DNA from: a virus
Taxonomy: Duplodnaviria; Heunggongvirae; Uroviricota; Caudoviricetes
DNA: 10,708 bases
Reading direction: 5' to 3' (one strand)
IMG/VR virus record: IMGVR_UViG_2690316105_000022
The position numbers were made by a program, and so were the translations under genes. Numbering within the stretch: the stretch's first letter is position 1; every line of letters starts with the position of its first letter. Of this stretch, positions 2,420 to 10,708 are shown piece after piece. The notes under the pieces were generated by a model. The model did no database searches and was not told the origin of the DNA. It saw only the letters and a program-made list of their open reading frames with translations.

Positions 2420-2725
2420 ATGAGCGAACCAAAATTTGGTGAAAAATTTTACAAGCACAACGTACGGATCACGATTCTGCAAATAAGCGCAGCTACACCA
2501 GGCTGGTGGGTTGAAACAGACGAAGGATCCTCACCCGTGGCATCATGGGCGCTTTGTGCGCTTAGTTACCCTGACAGCGATGTGTATCAGGATATTCTTC
2601 CTGTGATATCCACTGACAAAGGCATGAAACCCGTAGACATCAAAAACATGGGTTTTCAGTGCGTAATGCTCACTGAAAAAATGATGGAAGAGATGAAAAA
2701 GAACAACGCCGGATCGCTTCACTGA
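2420..2725 (+). CDS. Hypothetical protein; possibly the 3' remnant of a gene interrupted by the IS66 insertion
   Basis: The open frame runs without stops from inside the IS across the IS end to a TGA at 2723-2725, 9 nt before the SSB-like start. The first ATG outside the IS is at 2420, only 3 nt from the IS terminus, with no own ribosome-binding site. No family recognised. Confidence 0.35.
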   Translation: MSEPKFGEKFYKHNVRITILQISAATPGWWVETDEGSSPVASWALCALSYPDSDVYQDILPVISTDKGMKPVDIKNMGFQCVMLTEKMMEEMKKNNAGSLH

Positions 2726-2734
2726 GGTGGCAAT

Positions 2735-3145
2735 ATGACAGCACAAATTGCAGCTTACGGGCGGCTGGTGGACGACCCGCAGGTAAAACAGACCAGCAAG
2801 GGCACACCGATGACGCTGGCGCGTATGGCGGTATCGTTGCCATGCAGTCAGGCGCAGGACGGGCAGGCTACGTTATGGCTGTCGGTCCTGGCATTTGGCA
2901 AACAGGCCGACCAACTGGCAGGACATGAGAAAGGCAACGTAATCAGCGTATCCGGCGTGATGCAGGTCAGTCAGTGGACAGGACAGGACGGGGGGACGCG
3001 TCAGGGTTATCAGATTATTGCCGACAGCGTAATCAGTGCGAAAACGGTGAGACCAGGCGGCAGCAGACGCAAAACCACAGGCACACAGGGTAATCAGCCA
3101 CCAGCGGGAGGCGATGACCCTTACGGTGATGATATTCCGTTCTGA
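2735..3145 (+). CDS. ssb: Single-stranded DNA-binding protein (SSB-like)
   Basis: 136-aa ORF whose pattern (G.L..DP.V....G......A....W..V..FGK.A....KG..V...G.....WT.Q.G..R) aligns by eye to the E. coli SSB OB-fold, followed by a Gly/Pro/Gln-rich linker and a C-terminal acidic tip DDPYGDDIPF resembling the canonical SSB DDDIPF tail. RBS GAGGTGG lies 5-11 nt upstream of the ATG. Confidence 0.8.
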   Translation: MTAQIAAYGRLVDDPQVKQTSKGTPMTLARMAVSLPCSQAQDGQATLWLSVLAFGKQADQLAGHEKGNVISVSGVMQVSQWTGQDGGTRQGYQIIADSVISAKTVRPGGSRRKTTGTQGNQPPAGGDDPYGDDIPF

Positions 3146-3155
3146 GGGGGTGACG

Positions 3156-3428
3156 ATGGTACATGACCGCATAGCGGAAGAACTCGAAGCGAAAGGATTT
3201 TACCGGAGGGCGGCGGCGCGATGGGGTGAAGTTATGATGCTGGTGGAGACAGACAAGGAACGGCATCACATCACGATGCGACGGCTGGAATGTTCCAGGA
3301 AGGCACAGAGGCCACCGGAGACGGCGGATAATTACGGAGACCTGAAAAAGGCAGTCGATCGCACTTATGCCGAAATGGGGATAGATGGCGCTGGTGATGA
3401 AATATGGCGCAATTACCAGGACAGCTAA
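3156..3428 (+). CDS. Small transcriptional regulator, PerC-family-like (assignment from motif memory)
   Basis: 90-aa ORF starting MVHDRIAEELEAKGFYRRAAARW, resembling the A.ELE..GLWRRAA.RW signature I recall for PerC/Pch-type activators. RBS GAGGGGG is 6 nt upstream of the ATG at 3156; the start region overlaps the ssb stop. Followed by a terminator. Confidence 0.5.
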   Translation: MVHDRIAEELEAKGFYRRAAARWGEVMMLVETDKERHHITMRRLECSRKAQRPPETADNYGDLKKAVDRTYAEMGIDGAGDEIWRNYQDS

Positions 3429-3434
3429 TCACAC

Positions 3435-3458
3435 AGCCGGAGAAATCCGGCTTTTTTT
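3435..3458 (+). terminator. Rho-independent terminator after the PerC-like gene
   Basis: Perfect 7-bp stem AGCCGGA / TCCGGCT with GAAA tetraloop, followed by TTTTTT. Confidence 0.7.
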
Positions 3459-3553
3459 GCGCCAGTTGAAACGGTATGGCGCATTACCGGCTTTTCGTCA
3501 CGGTCCGGCATAGTTACTATCTGAAACAAACAGACACAACAGAGGAAAAAACA

Positions 3554-3778
3554 ATGCCGATGAAATTTGATGAGATATTAAAACAGCGTGATAAATACCA
3601 TGCTGACAACATGGAGACGATGAACATCAATGATTACCGCGCATTCCTGGAAACGGGCGCGCTAATCGAAAAGGATCGGCATGGATTTGTCAGATGTGCG
3701 CTATCCGGTGAAATGCTGGCAGTAAATCCTGAACAGATAGATGCATTGATAGAATTTCTGAAAGGGATCAGGGACTGA
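3554..3778 (+). CDS. Hypothetical small protein (74 aa), insulated cassette
   Basis: ORF starting MPMKFDEILKQ with a good RBS AGAGGA 7 nt upstream of the ATG at 3554. The 5' extension back to 3476 given by the ORF track is unlikely because it starts right after the preceding terminator. No recognisable family. Confidence 0.6.
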   Translation: MPMKFDEILKQRDKYHADNMETMNINDYRAFLETGALIEKDRHGFVRCALSGEMLAVNPEQIDALIEFLKGIRD

Positions 3779-3788
3779 GCACCCATAC

Positions 3789-3820
3789 AGCCGGAGCAAT
3801 CCGGCTTTTTGTTATTTTTT
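3789..3820 (+). terminator. Rho-independent terminator after the small ORF, near-duplicate of the terminator at 3435
   Basis: Stem AGCCGGA / TCCGGCT with GCAA tetraloop, followed by TTTTTGTTATTTTTT. The core ACAGCCGGAG[A/C]AATCCGGCTTTTT is shared with the terminator at 3431-3457. Confidence 0.7.
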
Positions 3821-3829
3821 GTAAATTAT

Positions 3830-3877
3830 TTGTTCGTGGTTGTTCCACGTTGTTCACTGAGCGGATCGGCATATTTT
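3830..3877 (+). promoter_or_regulatory. Phased TTGTTC triple direct repeat with possible sigma70-like promoter for the capsid operon
   Basis: TTGTTC occurs at 3830, 3840 and 3850, exactly 10 bp apart (TTGTTCgtggTTGTTCcacgTTGTTCactg). The third copy could serve as a -35 element, with TATTTT at 3872-3877 as a -10 after a 16-nt spacer. No transcription start data. Confidence 0.3.
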
Positions 3878-3931
3878 ACCCGAACTGAATCATGATTATT
3901 CTCGCCAGTGGTGCCAGGACGCTGGGGCCAC

Positions 3932-3979
3932 TTTCCCGCCTGTTAATGTGCTCACCAATATTCATTACCAGGCGGGAAA
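3932..3979. repeat. Long imperfect palindrome (17-bp arms, 14-nt spacer) in the capsid leader
   Basis: Left arm TTTCCCGCCTGTTAATG (3932-3948) and right arm CATTACCAGGCGGGAAA (3963-3979) are reverse complements with one mismatch. Confidence 0.6.
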
Positions 3980-4032
3980 ACGATCGGTGCGATTGCTGAT
4001 TTCCTTATGAAAAACGGTTGAGTTTTTACCGC

Positions 4033-4070
4033 GTCCTGGAGTTCCTTACTTAACCCCAGGACTTTTTTTT
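4033..4070 (+). terminator. Terminator-like hairpin plus T8 tract immediately abutting the capsid start codon
   Basis: Stem GTCCTGG (4033-4039) / CCAGGAC (4056-4062) with a 16-nt loop, followed by TTTTTTTT (4063-4070); the capsid ATG begins at 4071. The loop is long for an efficient intrinsic terminator, so function is uncertain. Confidence 0.4.
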
Positions 4071-5228
4071 ATGCCGAGAATAATCGAATTACGCCAGCAG
4101 AAAACCGCCATTAAAAATCAGATGCGCGACATGCTGGAGAACGCGGAAAAAGAAAACCGCAGCCTTAACGATGCAGAGGGCGCAAAATTTGACGAATTAC
4201 GCGCTAAAGCTGAATCCCTCGATAAAGACATTTCCCGCCTTGAAGCCATTGCAGACGAAGAGCGCAGCAAGCCAGGTAAAAGCAGCCAGACCACTGACCA
4301 GGCAGAACTCCGAAACTACATCCTGACAGGTGAAACCCGTGCATTAAGTACAGGTGTCCCCGCTGATGGTGGTTATACCGTTATCCCTGAACTGAACACC
4401 GAAATCATGCGAATACTGGCGGATGAGTCCACCATGCGCCGCATCTGTACCGTGAAAAAAATCAGCAGCAACGAGTTTAAGCAGCTTGTTTCCGCTGGCG
4501 GTGCGACCGTTAACCTCGGTGAAGAGGGTAAGGCACGCGAACAGACCAGCACCCCGCAGATTAACGAGGTGAGCATCAAGCTGTATCCGGTCTATGCGTA
4601 CCCGCGCACCACGCAGGAAATCGTGGATTTTTCCGATGTGGACATCCTTTCATGGCTGACGGGCGAGATTGGCGACACCTTCACGGAAACCGAAGAAAGC
4701 GATCTGGTTGTGGGCGACGGTGACAAAAAAGCAAAAGGCTTTTTATCCGTACCCCGTGCAGAGAAGAACGACAAAGAACGTGATTTTGGTACGTTGCAGG
4801 TAATTAAGCCTTCTGAGTCTCTTGCGTGGACATCTGCGGACCCGCTGATCGATCTGAAATTTGCATTACGTAAAAAATACCGCAAGAACGCGGTATGGGT
4901 GGTTAACTCCACGACGGCGGCAAAACTCCAGAAGGTGAAGAATGCGAACGGGGATTATATATGGCGTGACCGTTTACAGGCGGGTGATCCTGACACATTG
5001 CTGGGCCTTCCGGTCGAATATCTGGAGTTTATGCCGGATAACGTTATTGCCCTGGGTGACTTCAAACGCGGTTACTACATTGTTGATCACGAAACGGGTG
5101 TTCGCACCAGACCGGACAACCTGACAGAACCAGGATTCATCAAAATTTTCACGCAGAAATATTTAGGCGGTGGCGTGGTGGATTCGAACGCGATCAAGAT
5201 TCTGGAACTGCCACAGGACGACGATTAA
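4071..5228 (+). CDS. Major capsid protein, HK97-fold family, with N-terminal coiled-coil (delta/scaffolding-like) domain
   Basis: 385-aa ORF. The first ~70 residues are a charged, coiled-coil-like region (ELRQQKTAIKNQMRDMLENAEKENRSLNDAEGAKFDELRAKAESLDKDISRLEAIADEE) typical of HK97-type delta domains; the remainder has the size and motif feel of HK97-family capsid proteins. Sits directly upstream of a prohead protease and portal. Confidence 0.88.
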   Translation: MPRIIELRQQKTAIKNQMRDMLENAEKENRSLNDAEGAKFDELRAKAESLDKDISRLEAIADEERSKPGKSSQTTDQAELRNYILTGETRALSTGVPADGGYTVIPELNTEIMRILADESTMRRICTVKKISSNEFKQLVSAGGATVNLGEEGKAREQTSTPQINEVSIKLYPVYAYPRTTQEIVDFSDVDILSWLTGEIGDTFTETEESDLVVGDGDKKAKGFLSVPRAEKNDKERDFGTLQVIKPSESLAWTSADPLIDLKFALRKKYRKNAVWVVNSTTAAKLQKVKNANGDYIWRDRLQAGDPDTLLGLPVEYLEFMPDNVIALGDFKRGYYIVDHETGVRTRPDNLTEPGFIKIFTQKYLGGGVVDSNAIKILELPQDDD

Positions 5229-5238
5229 CAGCATACAG

Positions 5239-5269
5239 AAGGGGCTAAAAAGCCCCTTTAGTGTTTTAT
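5239..5269 (+). terminator. Hairpin with interrupted T tract after the capsid gene (possible partial terminator)
   Basis: 8-bp stem AAGGGGCT / AGCCCCTT with AAAA loop (5239-5258), followed by TAGTGTTTT. Confidence 0.45.
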
Positions 5270-5283
5270 GGGTGAAAAAAATT

Positions 5284-5841
5284 ATGAAGAGTATGGAAAT
5301 CCGGTCATCGGAAATCACCACCAGCGCCAGCAACACGCTGACGGGTTACGTTGTTCGCTGGAATAACCTTTCTGATCTGCTATGGGGTGAGTTTTACGAA
5401 AAATTTCAGCGGGGGGCGTTTACTGAGTGGCTTGCGGCGGGTAATGACGTTCGCGGCCTGTATGAGCATGACCACAGCATGTTACTGGGGCGCACCCGTT
5501 CCGGATCGCTGAAACTGGAAGAGGACGACACAGGGTTACGCTTTGAACTGACGCCACCGGATACCAGTACAGGGCGGGACGTTATCGAACTGGTTAAGCG
5601 TGGTGATATATCCGGCATGAGCTTTGGCTTTCGTTCCCGTAAGGATGTATGGGATACCACAACAGATCCATGCGTGCGCACTGTGCTGGTTGCGGAACTG
5701 TACGAAATTACCGTCACATCCGTACCGGCTTACCCTGATTCCGGCGTGGAGCTGGCCCGCCGTTCCCTGTACGAGCAGCACCCCGAAAAAATGCCGCGTG
5801 CGGATAATCGCCGCTGGTGGGCGGATTTAGCGGGGGTGTGA
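5284..5841 (+). CDS. Prohead maturation protease, HK97 family (S78/U35-like)
   Basis: The ORF contains LTGYVVRWN...GAF...DVRGLYEHDHSMLLGRTRSGSLKLEEDDTGLRFEL..P.T..GRDVIELVKRGDISGMSFGFR...TVPAYPDSGVEL, closely resembling HK97-type prohead protease motifs as I recall them. Start chosen at the ATG at 5284, downstream of the capsid stop; the track's 5170 start would overlap the capsid gene. Confidence 0.82.
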   Translation: MKSMEIRSSEITTSASNTLTGYVVRWNNLSDLLWGEFYEKFQRGAFTEWLAAGNDVRGLYEHDHSMLLGRTRSGSLKLEEDDTGLRFELTPPDTSTGRDVIELVKRGDISGMSFGFRSRKDVWDTTTDPCVRTVLVAELYEITVTSVPAYPDSGVELARRSLYEQHPEKMPRADNRRWWADLAGV

Positions 5842-5842
5842 T

Positions 5843-7054
5843 ATGTGGCCTTTCAGAAGAAAAAAAGAGCAGCGCAGCATGACGCTTGATGAATTTATGG
5901 CGCTGGCTGGCACATCGAACACGGGGGCGGGTGAGTACGTATCATCGGGGACAGCGGAATCACTCCCCGCCGTCATGAACGCCGTCACGGTCATCTCTGA
6001 GGCGGTGGCTACTATGCCATGCTACCTGTACCTGGTACGCAATGAGAAGGGGAAGGAGGCCCGCGAGTGGCTTGATTCTCATCCGGTCGATCATATCCTC
6101 AACGAGCGCCCGAACGCATGGCAAACCCCCTACCAGTTTAAGCGAATGATGATCCGCCACTGCCTGTTAAACGGTAATGCTTACGCGGTGATTCAGTGGG
6201 GGCGTGATGGTTTTCCGGCGGCTTTACATCCTTACCCGCCGCAGTCGGTGAACGTGGAGCAGACAGGAGAACACAACTGGCGCTATTGCATCACTGACGC
6301 CTACACCGGAAACACCCGCAACTATTTACCGTGGGAAGTACTTCACCTTCGTTACTCCACGGATGACGGCTTTATGGGGCGCTCACCTGTAACCATCTGC
6401 CGCGAATCGCTGGGGCTTGGGCTGGCCCAACAACGCCACGGCGCGAGCGTGATGCGTGATGGCATGATGGCGGCAGGGGTTATCACGTCAGGCGAATGGC
6501 TGGACGGCGTGAAGGGCAAACAGGCATTAGCCGCACTGGAACGCTATAAAGGGGCCAAAAACGCCGGAAAAACGCCCATCCTTGAAGGGGGCATGAGTTA
6601 CCAGCAGCTGGGCATGAGTAACCAGGACGCCGAATGGCTGGCCTCCCGTCGCTTCACCATTGAAGACATCGCCCGAATGTTCAACGTCTCGCCGATTTTT
6701 CTGCAGGAATACAGCAACAGCACCTACAGCAATTTCAGCGAGGCAAGCCGCGCATTTCTCACCATGACGATGCGCCCGTGGCTGGCGAACTTTGAGCAGC
6801 AGATAAAAAACGCCTTGCTGGTGGTCTCGCCTGTACCTGGTATCCGGTATCAGGTGGAGTTTGACAGCGCGGACCTGTTACGGGCCACACCTGGCGAACG
6901 CTTTGCCACCTATGAGCGAGGCATCAAATCCGGTGTTATGTGCCCGAACGAAGCCCGCGAACGAGAAGGGTTGTCTCCGCGTGATGGTGGTGATGAGTTC
7001 AGCCAGGCATGGAAACAGGAAGTAAAAATCAGCGAGGGAGAAAAACCGGAATGA
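5843..7054 (+). CDS. Portal protein, HK97 family
   Basis: 403-aa ORF of portal size and character lying between the protease and head-completion genes. RBS-like GGGGG is 6 nt upstream; the start is 2 nt after the protease stop. Confidence 0.85.
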   Translation: MWPFRRKKEQRSMTLDEFMALAGTSNTGAGEYVSSGTAESLPAVMNAVTVISEAVATMPCYLYLVRNEKGKEAREWLDSHPVDHILNERPNAWQTPYQFKRMMIRHCLLNGNAYAVIQWGRDGFPAALHPYPPQSVNVEQTGEHNWRYCITDAYTGNTRNYLPWEVLHLRYSTDDGFMGRSPVTICRESLGLGLAQQRHGASVMRDGMMAAGVITSGEWLDGVKGKQALAALERYKGAKNAGKTPILEGGMSYQQLGMSNQDAEWLASRRFTIEDIARMFNVSPIFLQEYSNSTYSNFSEASRAFLTMTMRPWLANFEQQIKNALLVVSPVPGIRYQVEFDSADLLRATPGERFATYERGIKSGVMCPNEAREREGLSPRDGGDEFSQAWKQEVKISEGEKPE

Positions 7055-7389
7055 ACATAGGGCGACTGCGTGACAGGGTAACGATTCAGACCCTGAAACA
7101 GACCAGAGCCATGACGGGCGAAATACTCGAAACGTGGGAGGACGGTCACACACTCTGGGCAAGCGTGAACATGGTCAGCAGCAAGGAGTCCATTTCATCG
7201 GGTGCAGAGCTGGCGATTGGTACCGTAAGGATCTGGATACGGTACCGGAAGGACATTAACGCCACCAGCCGGATAAAGGTCAATACGGGGCCGCTGGCGG
7301 GGCGTGTACTGAATATCATCGGGCAGCCGCTGCCGGATGCCGCCAGGACACGCCTTGAAATTCTTTGTCGTGAGGGCGCGGAAAAATGA
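7051..7389 (+). CDS. Head-tail adaptor / head closure protein (Phage_H_T_join-like)
   Basis: 112-aa ORF starting MNIGRLRDRVTIQ with W...LWASV and IWIRYRKDI...RI motifs typical of head closure proteins. The ATG at 7051 overlaps the portal stop (ATGA), suggesting translational coupling. Confidence 0.7.
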   Translation: MNIGRLRDRVTIQTLKQTRAMTGEILETWEDGHTLWASVNMVSSKESISSGAELAIGTVRIWIRYRKDINATSRIKVNTGPLAGRVLNIIGQPLPDAARTRLEILCREGAEK

Positions 7390-7682
7390 CAGAAGAACTT
7401 ATCACCCTGGAAGAAGTGAAACTCCATTGCCGCATCGATGGCGACGAGGAAGACCAGTTAATCAGCGGATACATTGCCGCATCGCTTGAGGCGTGCCAGA
7501 TACACATAGGCAGGCGCTTTGATGACGGGCTGGAGTTCACGCCAGCCATAAAGATTGGCTGCATGATGTTTATCGCTCACCTGTATGAGAATCGCCAGAT
7601 TGTCGCGGATAACGCAAAAACACACGTACCCATGACGATTGGCGCACTCTGGACGGCTTACCGTGATGTGGGGGTGTACTGA
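7386..7682 (+). CDS. gp6-like head-tail connector protein
   Basis: 98-aa ORF starting MTEELITLEEVKLHCRIDGDEEDQLISGYIAASLEA, matching the I.LEE.K.HLRID.D.ED.LI...I.AA pattern of gp6-like connector proteins. Start overlaps the preceding stop (ATGA). Confidence 0.7.
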   Translation: MTEELITLEEVKLHCRIDGDEEDQLISGYIAASLEACQIHIGRRFDDGLEFTPAIKIGCMMFIAHLYENRQIVADNAKTHVPMTIGALWTAYRDVGVY

Positions 7683-8122
7683 TGCCGTGGCAACCATTAA
7701 GACGATGTACAGAACCAGGCTGCAACAGGCGCGTGAAGTCCGGCAAGTGTGAGGAGCACAGACGCAGCGCACGCCAGCAGCAGGACAGCCGGAGAGGCAG
7801 CAGCAGGGAGCGAGGGTATACGAGGCAGTGGGAGAAATACCGCGCCATGTATCTGAGTAAAAACCCGTTATGTGCGCATTGCCTGGAAAAAGGAATATAC
7901 ACGCCCGCCGTGGTGGTGGATCACATTATCCCAATCGATGGCGGTAATGATGTTCTCTTCTGGCCTGAGTGGAATCATCAGCCATTGTGCCAGGCGTGTC
8001 ATAACCAGAAAACGAAATGGCTTGATCCGTCCACAAAAAACAAGCGTGCTGCGGGTGGATTCCGTGAGGAGGAAGAACGGGCCGCTAACCGCAATAACTG
8101 GATGTATGGCGCTGATGAATGA
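7682..8122 (+). CDS. HNH endonuclease (terminase-associated type)
   Basis: 146-aa ORF with paired Cys motifs (CTEPGC, CAHC, CQAC) and an HNH core VDHIIPIDGGND...WNHQPLCQACHNQKT, located immediately upstream of terS/terL. Start overlaps the preceding stop (TGATG). Confidence 0.88.
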   Translation: MPWQPLRRCTEPGCNRRVKSGKCEEHRRSARQQQDSRRGSSRERGYTRQWEKYRAMYLSKNPLCAHCLEKGIYTPAVVVDHIIPIDGGNDVLFWPEWNHQPLCQACHNQKTKWLDPSTKNKRAAGGFREEEERAANRNNWMYGADE

Positions 8123-8288
8123 GCGGGAACAAAACCGCCTTATCCGTGGACTTATAAGGCAGCGTGACGCATGGAAGGCACAGGAAACAGGGCATAAAGA
8201 TAAAGCATCAGGACGCGCAGAACGCATCACAGCGACGCGATTAAACGACCGTGACCGCGAGGTTATGGAATGTTTCCGCAATCGCTGA
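8115..8288 (+). CDS. Hypothetical small basic protein (57 aa), uncertain
   Basis: ATG at 8115 overlaps the HNH stop (ATGAATGA) and the ORF runs to a TGA at 8286-8288; an alternative ATG lies at 8106. It fills the otherwise non-coding gap between HNH and the GC-rich intergenic region. No strong RBS and no recognisable family. Confidence 0.3.
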   Translation: MNEREQNRLIRGLIRQRDAWKAQETGHKDKASGRAERITATRLNDRDREVMECFRNR

Positions 8289-8411
8289 TGAGGCAGCCGG
8301 ACGGGGTGGGGGGAGTTTTCAGGACGAACCCGACCCCGCCCAGAACCGAACGCCTCCCCAAATTTTTATGCACGGTAATTTTTTGAAAAATAATCTGGCG
8401 AAAAAATAAGC
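8289..8411. other. Candidate cos / packaging-recognition region upstream of terS
   Basis: GC-rich block with G-runs and complementary C-runs (CGGGGTGGGGGGAG at 8302-8315; CCCGACCCCGCCC at 8329-8341; CGCCTCCCC at 8351-8359), followed by an AT-rich segment (AAATTTTTATGCACGGTAATTTTTTGAAAAATAATCTGGCGAAAAAATAAG) ending at the terS start. Position between HNH and terS is where cos sites sit in HK97-like cos phages. Confidence 0.3.
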
Positions 8412-8768
8412 ATGGCAAGACCACCGAAAGCCCCCGCCTACCTGGATGATATCGCCGTGAAGCAGTGGCGGGAAAAATCGCGGCAGCTTGCGGAACGGGG
8501 AGACCTGACCCCTGCCGACTGGAGTAATCTGGAACTGTATTGCGTCAATTACTCGATATACAGGAAAGCCGTCGCAGACCTTGCGGCGCGCGGGTTCAGC
8601 ATTGTTAACAGTCAGGGCGGAGAGAGCAGAAACCCCGCATTAAGCGCGAAATCCGACGCGGAAAGAGTGATGATAAAAATGGCCTCTTTGCTCGGTTTTG
8701 ACCCGATAAGCCGCCGTAAAAATCCACCGGAAACAGAAGAAGAGGACGAGCTTGACCGCCTGGAATAA
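8412..8768 (+). CDS. terS: Terminase small subunit, P27 family-like
   Basis: 118-aa ORF with the L..YC..Y......A.......G......G.......NP pattern and a C-terminal acidic tail, consistent with P27-family small terminases. Lies directly upstream of, and overlapping, the large terminase gene. Confidence 0.8.
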   Translation: MARPPKAPAYLDDIAVKQWREKSRQLAERGDLTPADWSNLELYCVNYSIYRKAVADLAARGFSIVNSQGGESRNPALSAKSDAERVMIKMASLLGFDPISRRKNPPETEEEDELDRLE

Positions 8769-10413
8769 GTACGCAGAAGACGTAAAAACGGGCAAAATTC
8801 CGGCCTGTAAACGGCTGAAACAGGCCGTTAAACGGTACTTTTCGGACCTTGAAAACCCCCTTTACATGTTCGATCGTGAGGTTGTTGAGCGGTTTATTGC
8901 CTTTCCCAGGGTGTGCCCGCACGTAAAAGGGCCGATGCGTGGAAGACCCATTGAGCTGGAACCGTGGCAGCAGTTTGCCTTTGCGTGCATCCTCGGCTTT
9001 AAGGTTAAGGCCACCGGAAGGCGCAAATACACGAGCGCCTTTATCGAAGTGCCGCGCAAAAATGCGAAATCCACGACAGCCGCGATTCTGGCTAACTGGT
9101 TTCTGATTATGGAGAACGGGCAGCAGGATATTTACACCGCAGCGGTGAGCCGCGACCAGGCGCGGATCGTTTTTGATGATGCGCGTCAGATGTGCCTTTT
9201 ATCCCGACCGTTACGCAAGAGAGTGAATATTCAGGCCCACAAGGTGATGCACCCGAAAAGCAACAGCCTGTTAAAGCCGCTGGCAGCAAAAGCGGCAACC
9301 ATCGAGGGTACTAACCCCAGCCTTGCCATTGTGGACGAATACCACTTACACCCCGATAACGGCGTTTATTCTGCGCTTGAACTGGGGATGGGGGCACGTC
9401 CCGAAGGGCTGTTATTTGCCATTACCACATCAGGCAGCAACGTCGTTTCAGCCTGTAAACAGCACTATGATTATTGCTGCCAGATCCTGGACGGCGAAGA
9501 GGTCAACGATTCAATTTTTGTACTGATTTACGAACTGGACGACGAAAACGAGGTTGATGATCCGGAGATGTGGATAAAGGCGAACCCTAATATTGATGTT
9601 TCCGTGGATCGTGAAAAACTGGCCTCAACCATCCAGAAAGCGCGGGGCATACCGTCGCAATGGGTGGAGATGATGACAAAGCGATTTAATATCTGGTGTC
9701 AGGGGGCTACCCCGTGGATGGGTAACGGAGCATGGGCTGAGTGCGCCGGAAAGTTCACGGAGGAAGATTTACACGGTCAGGAATGTTACGCGGGGCTGGA
9801 TTTATCATCCACAAGCGACATTTCCAGCGTGTGCTATGCCTTTCCGGTCGGTAAAAATATCATGCTGGTTTCCCGTCATTATCTGCCGGAGTTCCAGTTA
9901 CAGAACCCAGCCAATAAAAATCGCGCTATCTATCGCCAGTGGGCACGGGCGGGATGGATACGCACAACGCCAGGGGACTGCATTGATTACGACCGGATAC
10001 GTGATGACATCATGCAGGACGCGGAAAAATTTAATATCAGGCTGGTGGGCTTCGATACGTGGAACGCAACGCATCTCAGGACGCAATTACAGGGGGCAGG
10101 CTTTGAGGTGGAGCCGTTCCCGCAAACCTACCTTCGATTCAGTCCGGCGGCGAAATCGTTCGAAGTTTTTGTTAACCGCAGGGTTATCGTGCATCGTGGT
10201 GATCCGGTGTTGTCCTGGTCGATGAGTAACGTCGTGATGCAGAGTGACGCGAACGCCAATATCAAGCCGAACAAGAAAAAATCACCGAACAAGATAGACC
10301 CGAGCGTGGCGGCACTGATGGCGTTTGGTACATTCCAGGCAGAGCATGAGGATTTTGCTTTTGATATAAGCGACAGCCACCGCCAAAAACTGGAAGAATT
10401 TAGCGGGGTGTAA
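8752..10413 (+). CDS. terL: Terminase large subunit (ATPase plus nuclease)
   Basis: 553-aa ORF with a Walker A-like motif (VPRKNAKSTTAAI), a Walker B-like LAIVDEYH segment and a C-terminal nuclease-like region. Overlaps the terS 3' end by 17 nt. Confidence 0.9.
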   Translation: MTAWNKYAEDVKTGKIPACKRLKQAVKRYFSDLENPLYMFDREVVERFIAFPRVCPHVKGPMRGRPIELEPWQQFAFACILGFKVKATGRRKYTSAFIEVPRKNAKSTTAAILANWFLIMENGQQDIYTAAVSRDQARIVFDDARQMCLLSRPLRKRVNIQAHKVMHPKSNSLLKPLAAKAATIEGTNPSLAIVDEYHLHPDNGVYSALELGMGARPEGLLFAITTSGSNVVSACKQHYDYCCQILDGEEVNDSIFVLIYELDDENEVDDPEMWIKANPNIDVSVDREKLASTIQKARGIPSQWVEMMTKRFNIWCQGATPWMGNGAWAECAGKFTEEDLHGQECYAGLDLSSTSDISSVCYAFPVGKNIMLVSRHYLPEFQLQNPANKNRAIYRQWARAGWIRTTPGDCIDYDRIRDDIMQDAEKFNIRLVGFDTWNATHLRTQLQGAGFEVEPFPQTYLRFSPAAKSFEVFVNRRVIVHRGDPVLSWSMSNVVMQSDANANIKPNKKKSPNKIDPSVAALMAFGTFQAEHEDFAFDISDSHRQKLEEFSGV

Positions 10414-10426
10414 TGAGGTCAGCAGC

Positions 10427-10708
10427 ATGACAGAAGCCGAAATACTGCGATTAATCCGCCGCGTCTCTGGAATCAGCCAGCAGCATGACGAACAGGCCAC
10501 GCAGCCGGACAGCGTGACCGCCGAAAATTATGCGCGTGTTGTTGCTGAGGTGATGCGCCGTGATGGTATCCAGCTTAATGATGTGGATATGCGCAACATA
10601 CGGATCCGCGTTCTTGAAATGCTGGCCTACCGTCGCCGCGTGCAGACGTACAGGGAAAAAGCAAAAATTACGTACCACTGGAAGAAGCCGGAGCGGTTAC
10701 GGCGGTAA
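10427..10708 (+). CDS. Hypothetical protein (93 aa), basic C-terminus
   Basis: ORF with RBS GAGGT 7 nt upstream of the ATG at 10427, beginning 13 nt after the terL stop; the stop codon coincides with the last three bases of the window. No recognisable family. Confidence 0.55.
   Translation: MTEAEILRLIRRVSGISQQHDEQATQPDSVTAENYARVVAEVMRRDGIQLNDVDMRNIRIRVLEMLAYRRRVQTYREKAKITYHWKKPERLRR

Follow-up and report, generated by a model that had tools for sequence, protein, structure and literature searches.

How capsid-forming PICIs (cf-PICIs) turn on their capsid and packaging operon is the real question at this locus. The whole stretch of DNA analysed, hereafter the window, is 10,708 nucleotides long and carries a gene for a PerC-type regulator upstream of such an operon. 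A sequence-only reading had proposed that this regulator, as the last gene before the structural operon, could be the dedicated activator of the capsid and packaging genes, acting on phased TTGTTC repeats in their leader. We evaluated this proposal against the gene content of the island, the identity of the protein, the structure of the leader and the distribution of both among related satellites.

The window consists of two parts, an IS66-family element at positions 1–2417 and, from 2418 on, the right arm of a satellite (Table 1). The element gave Pfam matches to DDE_Tnp_IS66 (E 5e-107), TnpB_IS66 (E 1.6e-38) and HTH_Tnp_1, and its end (...GACGACGCTTAC at 2417) lies 2 nt before the ATG of orf101; homology to intact islands begins at 2418. 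Farther along, genes for capsid, protease, portal, head completion, connector, HNH, TerS and TerL are found together, the gene set of a capsid-forming PICI operon, and the window is the right arm of an EcCIEDL933-like cf-PICI. In Sakai Sp7, the order of the SSB gene, pchE, a 74-aa ORF, the leader and the capsid gene is the same as in the window, and the two leaders are about 97% identical. Sp7 (also known as CP-933C, OI-51 and EcCIEDL933) is the prototype capsid-forming PICI (bioRxiv 10.1101/2022.09.08.507074), PchE is listed among the CP-933C genes (PMC3378721), and Gram-negative PICIs are known to carry PerC homologues as accessory genes (PMC6092414, PMC11773190). Transfer of EcCIEDL933 was lowered by mutation of 'hypothetical gene 1792'.

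Table 1. Features of the window, and related Q antiterminator loci, with their coordinates.
Feature	Position	Strand	Details
IS66-family insertion sequence	1–2417	−	tnpC 1–1539, tnpB 1588–1935, tnpA 1932–2336
101-aa ORF (orf101), phrog_27268, function unassigned	2420–2725	+	First island gene after the IS; 97% identical to L001 14003–14305
Island-encoded SSB, 136 aa	2735–3145	+	Pfam SSB E 3.8e-15; phrog_44
PerC-family gene	3156–3428	+	90 aa; ATG 3156, stop 3426–3428; protein begins MVHDRIAEELEAKGFYRRAAARW
Intrinsic terminator closing the SSB-perC transcript	3435–3459	+	AGCCGGAGAAATCCGGCT (3435–3452) + T7; strong
74-aa ORF, phrog_1957, function unassigned	3554–3778	+	E 8e-41
Second intrinsic terminator	3789–3811	+	AGCCGGAGCAATCCGGCT (3789–3806) + T5; near-copy of the perC terminator
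Phased repeat box	3809–3855	+	TTGTTA 3809, TTGTAA 3819, TTGTTC 3830, 3840 and 3850
Weak sigma-70-like promoter candidate	3875–3902	+	TTTACC-N16-TATTCT, 8/12 matches; inferred from sequence and alignment
Leader hairpin H1	3908–3931	+	GACG loop; predicted transcript start near 3909
Leader hairpin H2	3932–3979	+	11-bp stem TTTCCCGCCTG/CAGGCGGGAAA; the 'palindrome' of the sequence-only reading
Hairpin H3 + T8	4033–4070	+	GTCCTGG-N16-CCAGGAC (4033–4062); terminator-like; abuts the capsid ATG
Capsid and packaging operon	4071–10413	+	Pfam matches for all eight genes; order as in Sp7/EcCIEDL933
HK97-type major capsid	4071–5228	+	
Prohead protease	about 5290–5841	+	
Portal	5843–7054	+	
Head completion	about 7051–7389	+	
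Connector	7386–7682	+	
HNH	7682–8122	+	
TerS, P27 type	8412–8768	+	
TerL	8752–10413	+	
Q antiterminator loci (other genera)	L062 1018–1410		Also L063, L080 and L081

Intact relatives are about 16 kb long and contain int, an AlpA-like HTH gene, Icd-like genes, a DUF4222 (RgdR-type) gene and a primase or helicase gene; no tail or lysis genes were found in them. The left arm with int, alpA and pri/rep is present in the related islands L001, L003 and L004 and falls outside the window, in which IS66 occupies everything left of 2418. At its other end the window stops at 10708 inside the last small ORF; the L001 island, about 16 kb long, ends right after that ORF, inside tqsA. For an island of the EcCIEDL933 type, a length of roughly 10–18 kb would be expected. 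Close relatives that retain the left arm have GGTAGAGG iterons after the primase gene, and in L001 (13407–13755) multiple GGTAGAGG/CCCTCTACC iterons surround an AT-rich stretch, as expected of a PICI replication origin. In packaging modules of the HNH/P27 type, the cos site usually lies between the HNH and TerS genes, an interval that in the window is a 290-bp non-coding gap (8123–8411). IS66 takes the place of the upstream gene, of the region from which the orthologous SSB-pchE transcript is initiated and of the entire left arm. With the native SSB-perC promoter gone, expression of the window copy is uncertain. Unless its left arm lies beyond the IS, the satellite has probably lost its mobility in this genome.

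The sequence-only reading had recognised a PerC/Pch-type motif and named a profile search against PF06069 as its check; both were borne out. PF06069 (PerC) matches the 90-aa protein with E 3.5e-43 and 146.2 bits, versus a cut-off of 22.6, and residues 1–89 align with profile positions 1–89 of 90, a similarity far greater than chance would give. The ORF is real, and the motif is present at its start. A match to phrog_994 (E 3.7e-46) was also obtained, as were matches to further PHROGs labelled transcriptional activator, and RefSeq labels the identical 273-nt frame in relatives 'PerC family transcriptional regulator'. The frame is preceded by a Shine–Dalgarno sequence, GAGGGGG, at 3145–3151 (5–11 nt 5′ of the ATG). 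Because it starts only 10 nt past the SSB stop codon, we read perC as co-transcribed with the SSB gene. The protein shares 79 of 90 residues (88%) with Sakai PchE (ECs_1588), the 11 substitutions falling mostly in residues 53–90, and the 1-kb region aligns at 98% mean column identity. Judged by this identity and by its position after the island SSB gene, which together mark a PchE (group 3 Pch) orthologue, the window gene is an allele of the known E. coli pchE. The closest allele found, at 94% amino-acid identity, is the PerC of a PICI in O157:H7 TR01 that is classed as non-capsid-forming, and the N-terminal 52 residues are identical to those of L001.

The window protein contains the N-terminal signature of the family, AE-LE--G-[LF]-[YW]-RRAA-RW, together with the later RR--C and MG motifs. 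Across 55 aligned PerC members, R17 and A19 never vary, and conservation reaches at least 90% at A7, L10, E11, G14, R18, R22, W23, C46, M74 and G75; the window protein has every one of these residues. An AlphaFold2 model (mean pLDDT 81.9) has helices at residues 5–13, 16–29, 33–50, 60–73 and 82–85, which describes a small all-helical protein of four main helices and a short C-terminal turn. A fold search of the PDB with this model returned no match at E < 1, and a sequence search of solved structures returned nothing meaningful. Since there is neither a fold match nor a solved relative, the mechanism of PerC cannot be read from structure. A Pfam scan of the protein detected no HTH or other DNA-binding domain, and neither Pfam nor fold comparison matched it to the late activators and antiterminators Q (PF06530), Mor (PF08765) and Ogr/Delta; this lack of any match to a known late-activator family in sequence or predicted fold counts against the dedicated-activator proposal. 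Membership of the ANR (AraC negative regulator) family was rejected, given that NF033650 aligned with residues 7–52 at E 4.3e-4 and 20.1 bits, under its curated cut-off of 32.

Between perC alleles, dN/dS is 0.2–0.44, and most replacements fall in residues 53–90; the corresponding value is 0.04 for the capsid gene and 0.05–0.15 for the 74-aa ORF. Selection on perC is purifying but relaxed. The PerC family is small, with 105 cluster representatives at E up to 0.001 among 1.8 billion. Its members are common on Escherichia plasmids, at 32–44% identity to the window protein, whereas sequenced phage genomes hardly ever contain a PerC-type gene: only 10 of 50,697 records do, and all of these are distant.

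The claim that perC lies directly upstream of the structural operon did not survive in the window, where its placement is off by one gene: the 74-aa ORF at 3554–3778 and two terminators intervene. The terminator that follows perC is conserved in Sp7 and L001. In L003-type relatives without the 74-aa ORF, PerC abuts the leader directly. In several genera, 22 loci in all have a homologue of the 74-aa ORF (phrog_1957) ahead of the capsid gene, so that phrog_1957 is associated with the capsid leader far more widely than PerC, and, as the dN/dS values above indicate, the ORF is under stronger purifying selection than PerC. It is 40% identical to an 82-aa ORF (L087 4730–4978) of lineage 2, a second E. 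coli cf-PICI lineage whose capsid is about 74% identical to that of the window. For control of the capsid leader, the evidence favours other candidates over PerC, namely the phrog_1957 protein (as a partner encoded by the island itself), AlpA or a factor from the helper phage. Some RefSeq records label the 74-aa phrog_1957 ORF 'trigger factor', which looks like a mis-annotation.

The phased repeats that the sequence-only reading placed in the capsid leader are real. Five units with a period of 10–11 bp form a box that occurs once per island, about 100 to 54 nt 5′ of the predicted leader start. The promoter candidate downstream of the box scores below the threshold of the promoter scan; at the homologous position, L087 has TTTACA-N16-TATGTT. 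The RNA that would follow folds far better than shuffled sequences (MFE z = −6.7). Over 26 leaders from many genera, 95.4% of cells in H1 and H2 are paired, and 12 of the 17 H1/H2 pairs are changed on both sides. None of 500 shuffles matches the observed H1/H2 covariation, and slid controls drop to 32–50% paired. The third hairpin contains the only SD-like AGGA of the leader and was left unflagged by the terminator scan because its 16-nt loop exceeds the scan's loop limit of 8. The cf-PICI capsid leader is a conserved structured RNA with strong covariation, in which the long hairpin H2 varies between islands. The cis element is seen at 3809–4070 of the window and also in L008–L014, L053, L060 and L064–L089; an Rfam search of the window and seven loci returned no family for it.

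Other interpretations of the leader were considered. Its GC content of 42–48% makes it only mildly AT-rich, which is not distinctive of an H-NS target by composition. The TTGT box was rejected as a replication origin, both because the origin iterons (GGTAGAGG) lie right after the primase gene and because islands share an identical box although their replicases are of three kinds (primase family, RepA helicase and DUF927). The idea of an AlpA/excisionase-type array that is also present in the att region gained nothing from the scanned stretches of L001, L002, L003, L087 and the window, which hold no second TTGT-repeat cluster; the L087 stretch stops short of int and att. In other genera, TGTTTAC-N-TGTTTAC resembles a PhoP box, but its spacing is 10 rather than 11 and it lies far upstream of the −35 element. 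We also observed a perfect 10-nt complementarity between AUUAUUCUCG (3895–3904, at the predicted promoter/5′ end) and CGAGAAUAAU (4075–4084, capsid codons 2–5), which the MFE fold pairs with each other, closing the whole leader. As AUUAUUCUCG lies upstream of the predicted start near 3909, this pairing matters only if transcription starts further upstream.

A dedicated regulator and its cis target would be expected to travel together. To compare their distributions, 80 cf-PICI-like loci were fetched by capsid alignment from one-genome-per-species data, and PerC was sought with a PchE-subfamily HMM, with Pfam on 69 cluster representatives of upstream ORFs and with a family-wide six-frame HMM. 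None of the 79 loci from other genera contained PerC; each search found it only in Escherichia and a Shigella remnant. A homologous box, TTGTAAAT followed by phased TGTT(T)AC-type repeats, is nevertheless present in more than 40 of the 79 loci, about 115–230 nt upstream of the capsid ATG (about 215–230 nt where the leader resembles that of the window). Lineage 2 has the window box except for one base between repeats, and five of its seven sampled islands (L087, L088, L091, L092 and L094) have ProQ/FinO in the PerC slot and no PerC; the other two (L089 and L093) have PerC there. The lineage-2 slot lies between the SSB gene and the phrog_1957 ORF.

PerC is likewise found without the box. Many O157:H7 strains carry a PICI at the roxA-phoQ site in which a PerC 94% identical to that of the window is followed by the 74-aa ORF, then by a different leader lacking the TTGT box and by a lambda-like capsid/decoration/TerS module. 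Early and late modules of these satellites evidently recombine. In L005 and L006, perC is frameshifted and the islands are without capsid genes or box, and in Shigella L007 perC is deleted and the capsid gene and leader are retained. In O157:H7 TR01 (L090, at roxA-phoQ), a 68-aa ORF, a lambda-like major capsid protein, a head decoration protein and TerS were noted at 7001–10659, behind a left part ordered int-alpA-rep-SSB-PerC-orf74 like that of other islands and a leader with TTGCA-type repeats. Among E. coli genomes with the window-type leader, 354 of 360 have perC adjoining it, a linkage that may be plain clonal inheritance, these leaders being at least 93% identical and of one lineage. By these comparisons, perC and the capsid leader behave as evolutionarily independent units. 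The proposal that PerC is the dedicated capsid and packaging activator on the TTGTTC repeats is thus not supported on two counts, the box without PerC in five of seven lineage-2 islands and in more than 40 loci of other genera, and PerC preceding a boxless leader or residing in capsid-less islands.

The slot that perC occupies holds other genes elsewhere, and cf-PICI-like loci carry DUF1240, DUF6201, cloacin immunity, Hcp, methylase or Q antiterminator genes in the same place. In loci of Pantoea bathycoeliae and Symbiopectobacterium, a Q antiterminator gene (PF06530, E 1.5e-35) lies directly upstream of the capsid gene, and the leader there contains an intrinsic terminator. The presence of an RNA chaperone gene (ProQ/FinO) beside what folds as a highly structured leader RNA is suggestive. 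L006 has both ProQ/FinO and PerC, with candidate defence genes downstream.

Published work on PchE bears on the same question. In O157:H7 PA20, one transcript covers ECs1586, the SSB gene and pchE, and its start was mapped 10 nt 5′ of ECs1586 (PMC7369912, section 4.4). Uninduced cells express pchE steadily at a low level, and SOS induction of prophages lowers this more than 6-fold (PMC6265319). Such a pattern, with expression before induction and little afterwards, is hard to reconcile with a late activator and is a further argument against PerC as the capsid activator (PMC6265319, PMC7369912). When PchE is over-expressed, csgD and curli are repressed and flagella (flhDC) are activated (PMC7369912); the host-gene phenotypes of PchE come mostly from such plasmid over-expression. 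PchE has little effect on the LEE (PMC6265319), and its group is described as lacking LEE1 activation in the passage of PMC11773190 that cites Porter 2005. PICI homologues of PerC either have no effect on LEE1 or repress it (PMC11773190). Relief of H-NS/StpA/Hha silencing by Pch proteins (PMC4764244) is known for PchA–C, not PchE. Our literature search found no paper testing PerC or PchE on a capsid operon, and the cf-PICI papers make no mention of such a role.

We consider it likely that the PchE-type regulator is a conversion-type gene in a cargo slot and that the capsid operon is run by its own leader. In this reading, PerC is most likely an accessory trans-acting regulator of host genes. 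The PchE-type PerC occupies the variable slot between the replication/SSB genes and the capsid leader. According to the literature on the orthologue, a short ECs1586-SSB-pchE transcript begins close to the island replication origin and has pchE as its final cistron. As long as the island is resident and uninduced, this transcript is made at a low level, and SOS induction reduces it. The PchE protein, when expressed, acts in trans on host regulons, with csgD and curli turned down, flhDC and flagella turned up and LEE1 not activated. We infer that PchE, like PchA–C, may be a small helical modulator of nucleoid or regulator complexes, through H-NS/StpA/Hha-type silencing or an ANR-like contact, and would not be a sequence-specific activator with its own operator. 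PerC fits a functional, fast-evolving accessory regulator that presumably works through protein or nucleoid contacts. The gene would be of the lysogenic-conversion type for the satellite. The capsid operon would be controlled by its phased box, weak promoter and three-hairpin RNA, with a trans factor other than PerC.

Several observations weigh against this preferred reading. The perC–leader linkage in the window-type lineage is tight (354/360), and perC closes the early rightward block, with the late operon to follow, at the point where Pantoea and Symbiopectobacterium loci have Q. Late activators are classically encoded in this position. Furthermore, the anti-silencing mechanism comes from PchA–C, and the PchE phenotypes are mostly those of plasmid over-expression. 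PchE might instead be a lineage-specific auxiliary activator or anti-silencer of the E. coli cf-PICI capsid promoter that works at or near the repeat box, for example by displacing H-NS from T-rich phased DNA. Its position at the end of the early block, the islands in which PerC directly abuts the leader and the near-perfect E. coli linkage with leader type (354/360 genomes) are all consistent with such a role, as is the leader promoter, which is probably activator-dependent because it is weak (8/12 matches); the Pch family, moreover, is a proven anti-silencer (PMC4764244). We regard this alternative as unlikely, however, because a near-identical box is found in ProQ/FinO islands and a homologous one in over 40 PerC-free loci from other genera, because a 94%-identical PerC stands upstream of an unrelated leader, because expression of pchE is seen without induction and declines once SOS is induced (PMC6265319) and because the leader is only mildly AT-rich at 42–48% GC. 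That a PchE-type PerC is a non-essential, lineage-specific booster of the cf-PICI capsid promoter, clearing H-NS from the box for instance, seems to us quite improbable. If it were so, one small protein would retune host adhesion and motility as well as the readiness of the satellite to build capsids, and islands with ProQ/FinO in that slot would have found another solution, one that works on the structured leader at the RNA level.

PerC could also serve the conflict between satellite and helper, modulating genes of the helper phage or of competing islands, such as silenced prophage genes, much as other cargo of PICIs is directed at helpers. The slot otherwise holds conflict or accessory cargo, including immunity proteins, a methylase and, downstream in L006, candidate defence genes. 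We judge this distinctly unlikely, since the PchE phenotypes reported so far concern host adhesins and flagella (PMC7369912) and since PerC-type genes are so nearly absent from phage genomes. Alternatively, the window perC might be cargo that is silent or in decay and currently serves no function, cut off by IS66. The IS lies 2 nt before orf101 and removes the promoter region mapped for ECs1586-SSB-pchE (PMC7369912, section 4.4), and perC is frameshifted in other islands. Yet the frame, the Shine–Dalgarno sequence and the terminator of the window gene are intact, its N-terminal 52 residues equal those of L001 and dN/dS is below 0.5; as general background, IS ends often supply outward promoters. 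We find this reading very unlikely.

The pchE gene and its location in CP-933C/Sp7 were described years ago, and PerC was already recognised as a PICI accessory gene. The present analysis removes an attractive, unsupported idea, that of PerC as the capsid switch. The comparison points to the conserved leader as the control region, with its TTGT box, its weak promoter and an RNA of three hairpins in which the ribosome-binding site is contained.

Among known systems, lambda Q, P2 Ogr/P4 Delta and Mu Mor/C resemble perC in position only, at the end of an early block and before a leader with terminator-like hairpins; they are unrelated to PerC in sequence and fold, and PerC neither co-occurs with a target site nor shows the expression of a late activator, its pattern being the opposite. 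The Q gene and terminator-bearing leader of the Pantoea and Symbiopectobacterium loci, by contrast, recall lambda PR′ inside a satellite. With ANR (Aar-type) proteins there is a weak similarity over residues 7–52 and a common small helical build, and protein–protein action is plausible. PerC of EPEC pEAF and PchA/B/C of EHEC lambdoid prophages are LEE1/ler activators that counter H-NS. The window protein shares with them PF06069, the N-terminal signature and the small helical architecture; the plasmid-borne members are about 32–44% identical to it, and the carrier is a plasmid or lambdoid prophage there and a phage satellite here. EcCIMP1_025 of PICI EcCIMP1 is, like the window gene, a PerC-family accessory gene in a Gram-negative PICI, and is said to be about 40% identical to its EcCIEDL933 and EcCICFT073 homologues (PMC11773190). 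It represses LEE1 in Citrobacter rodentium, and its island is without a capsid module. With PchE of Sp7/EcCIEDL933, the window shares both gene order and 88% identity, the difference being that the island in the window is interrupted upstream by IS66.
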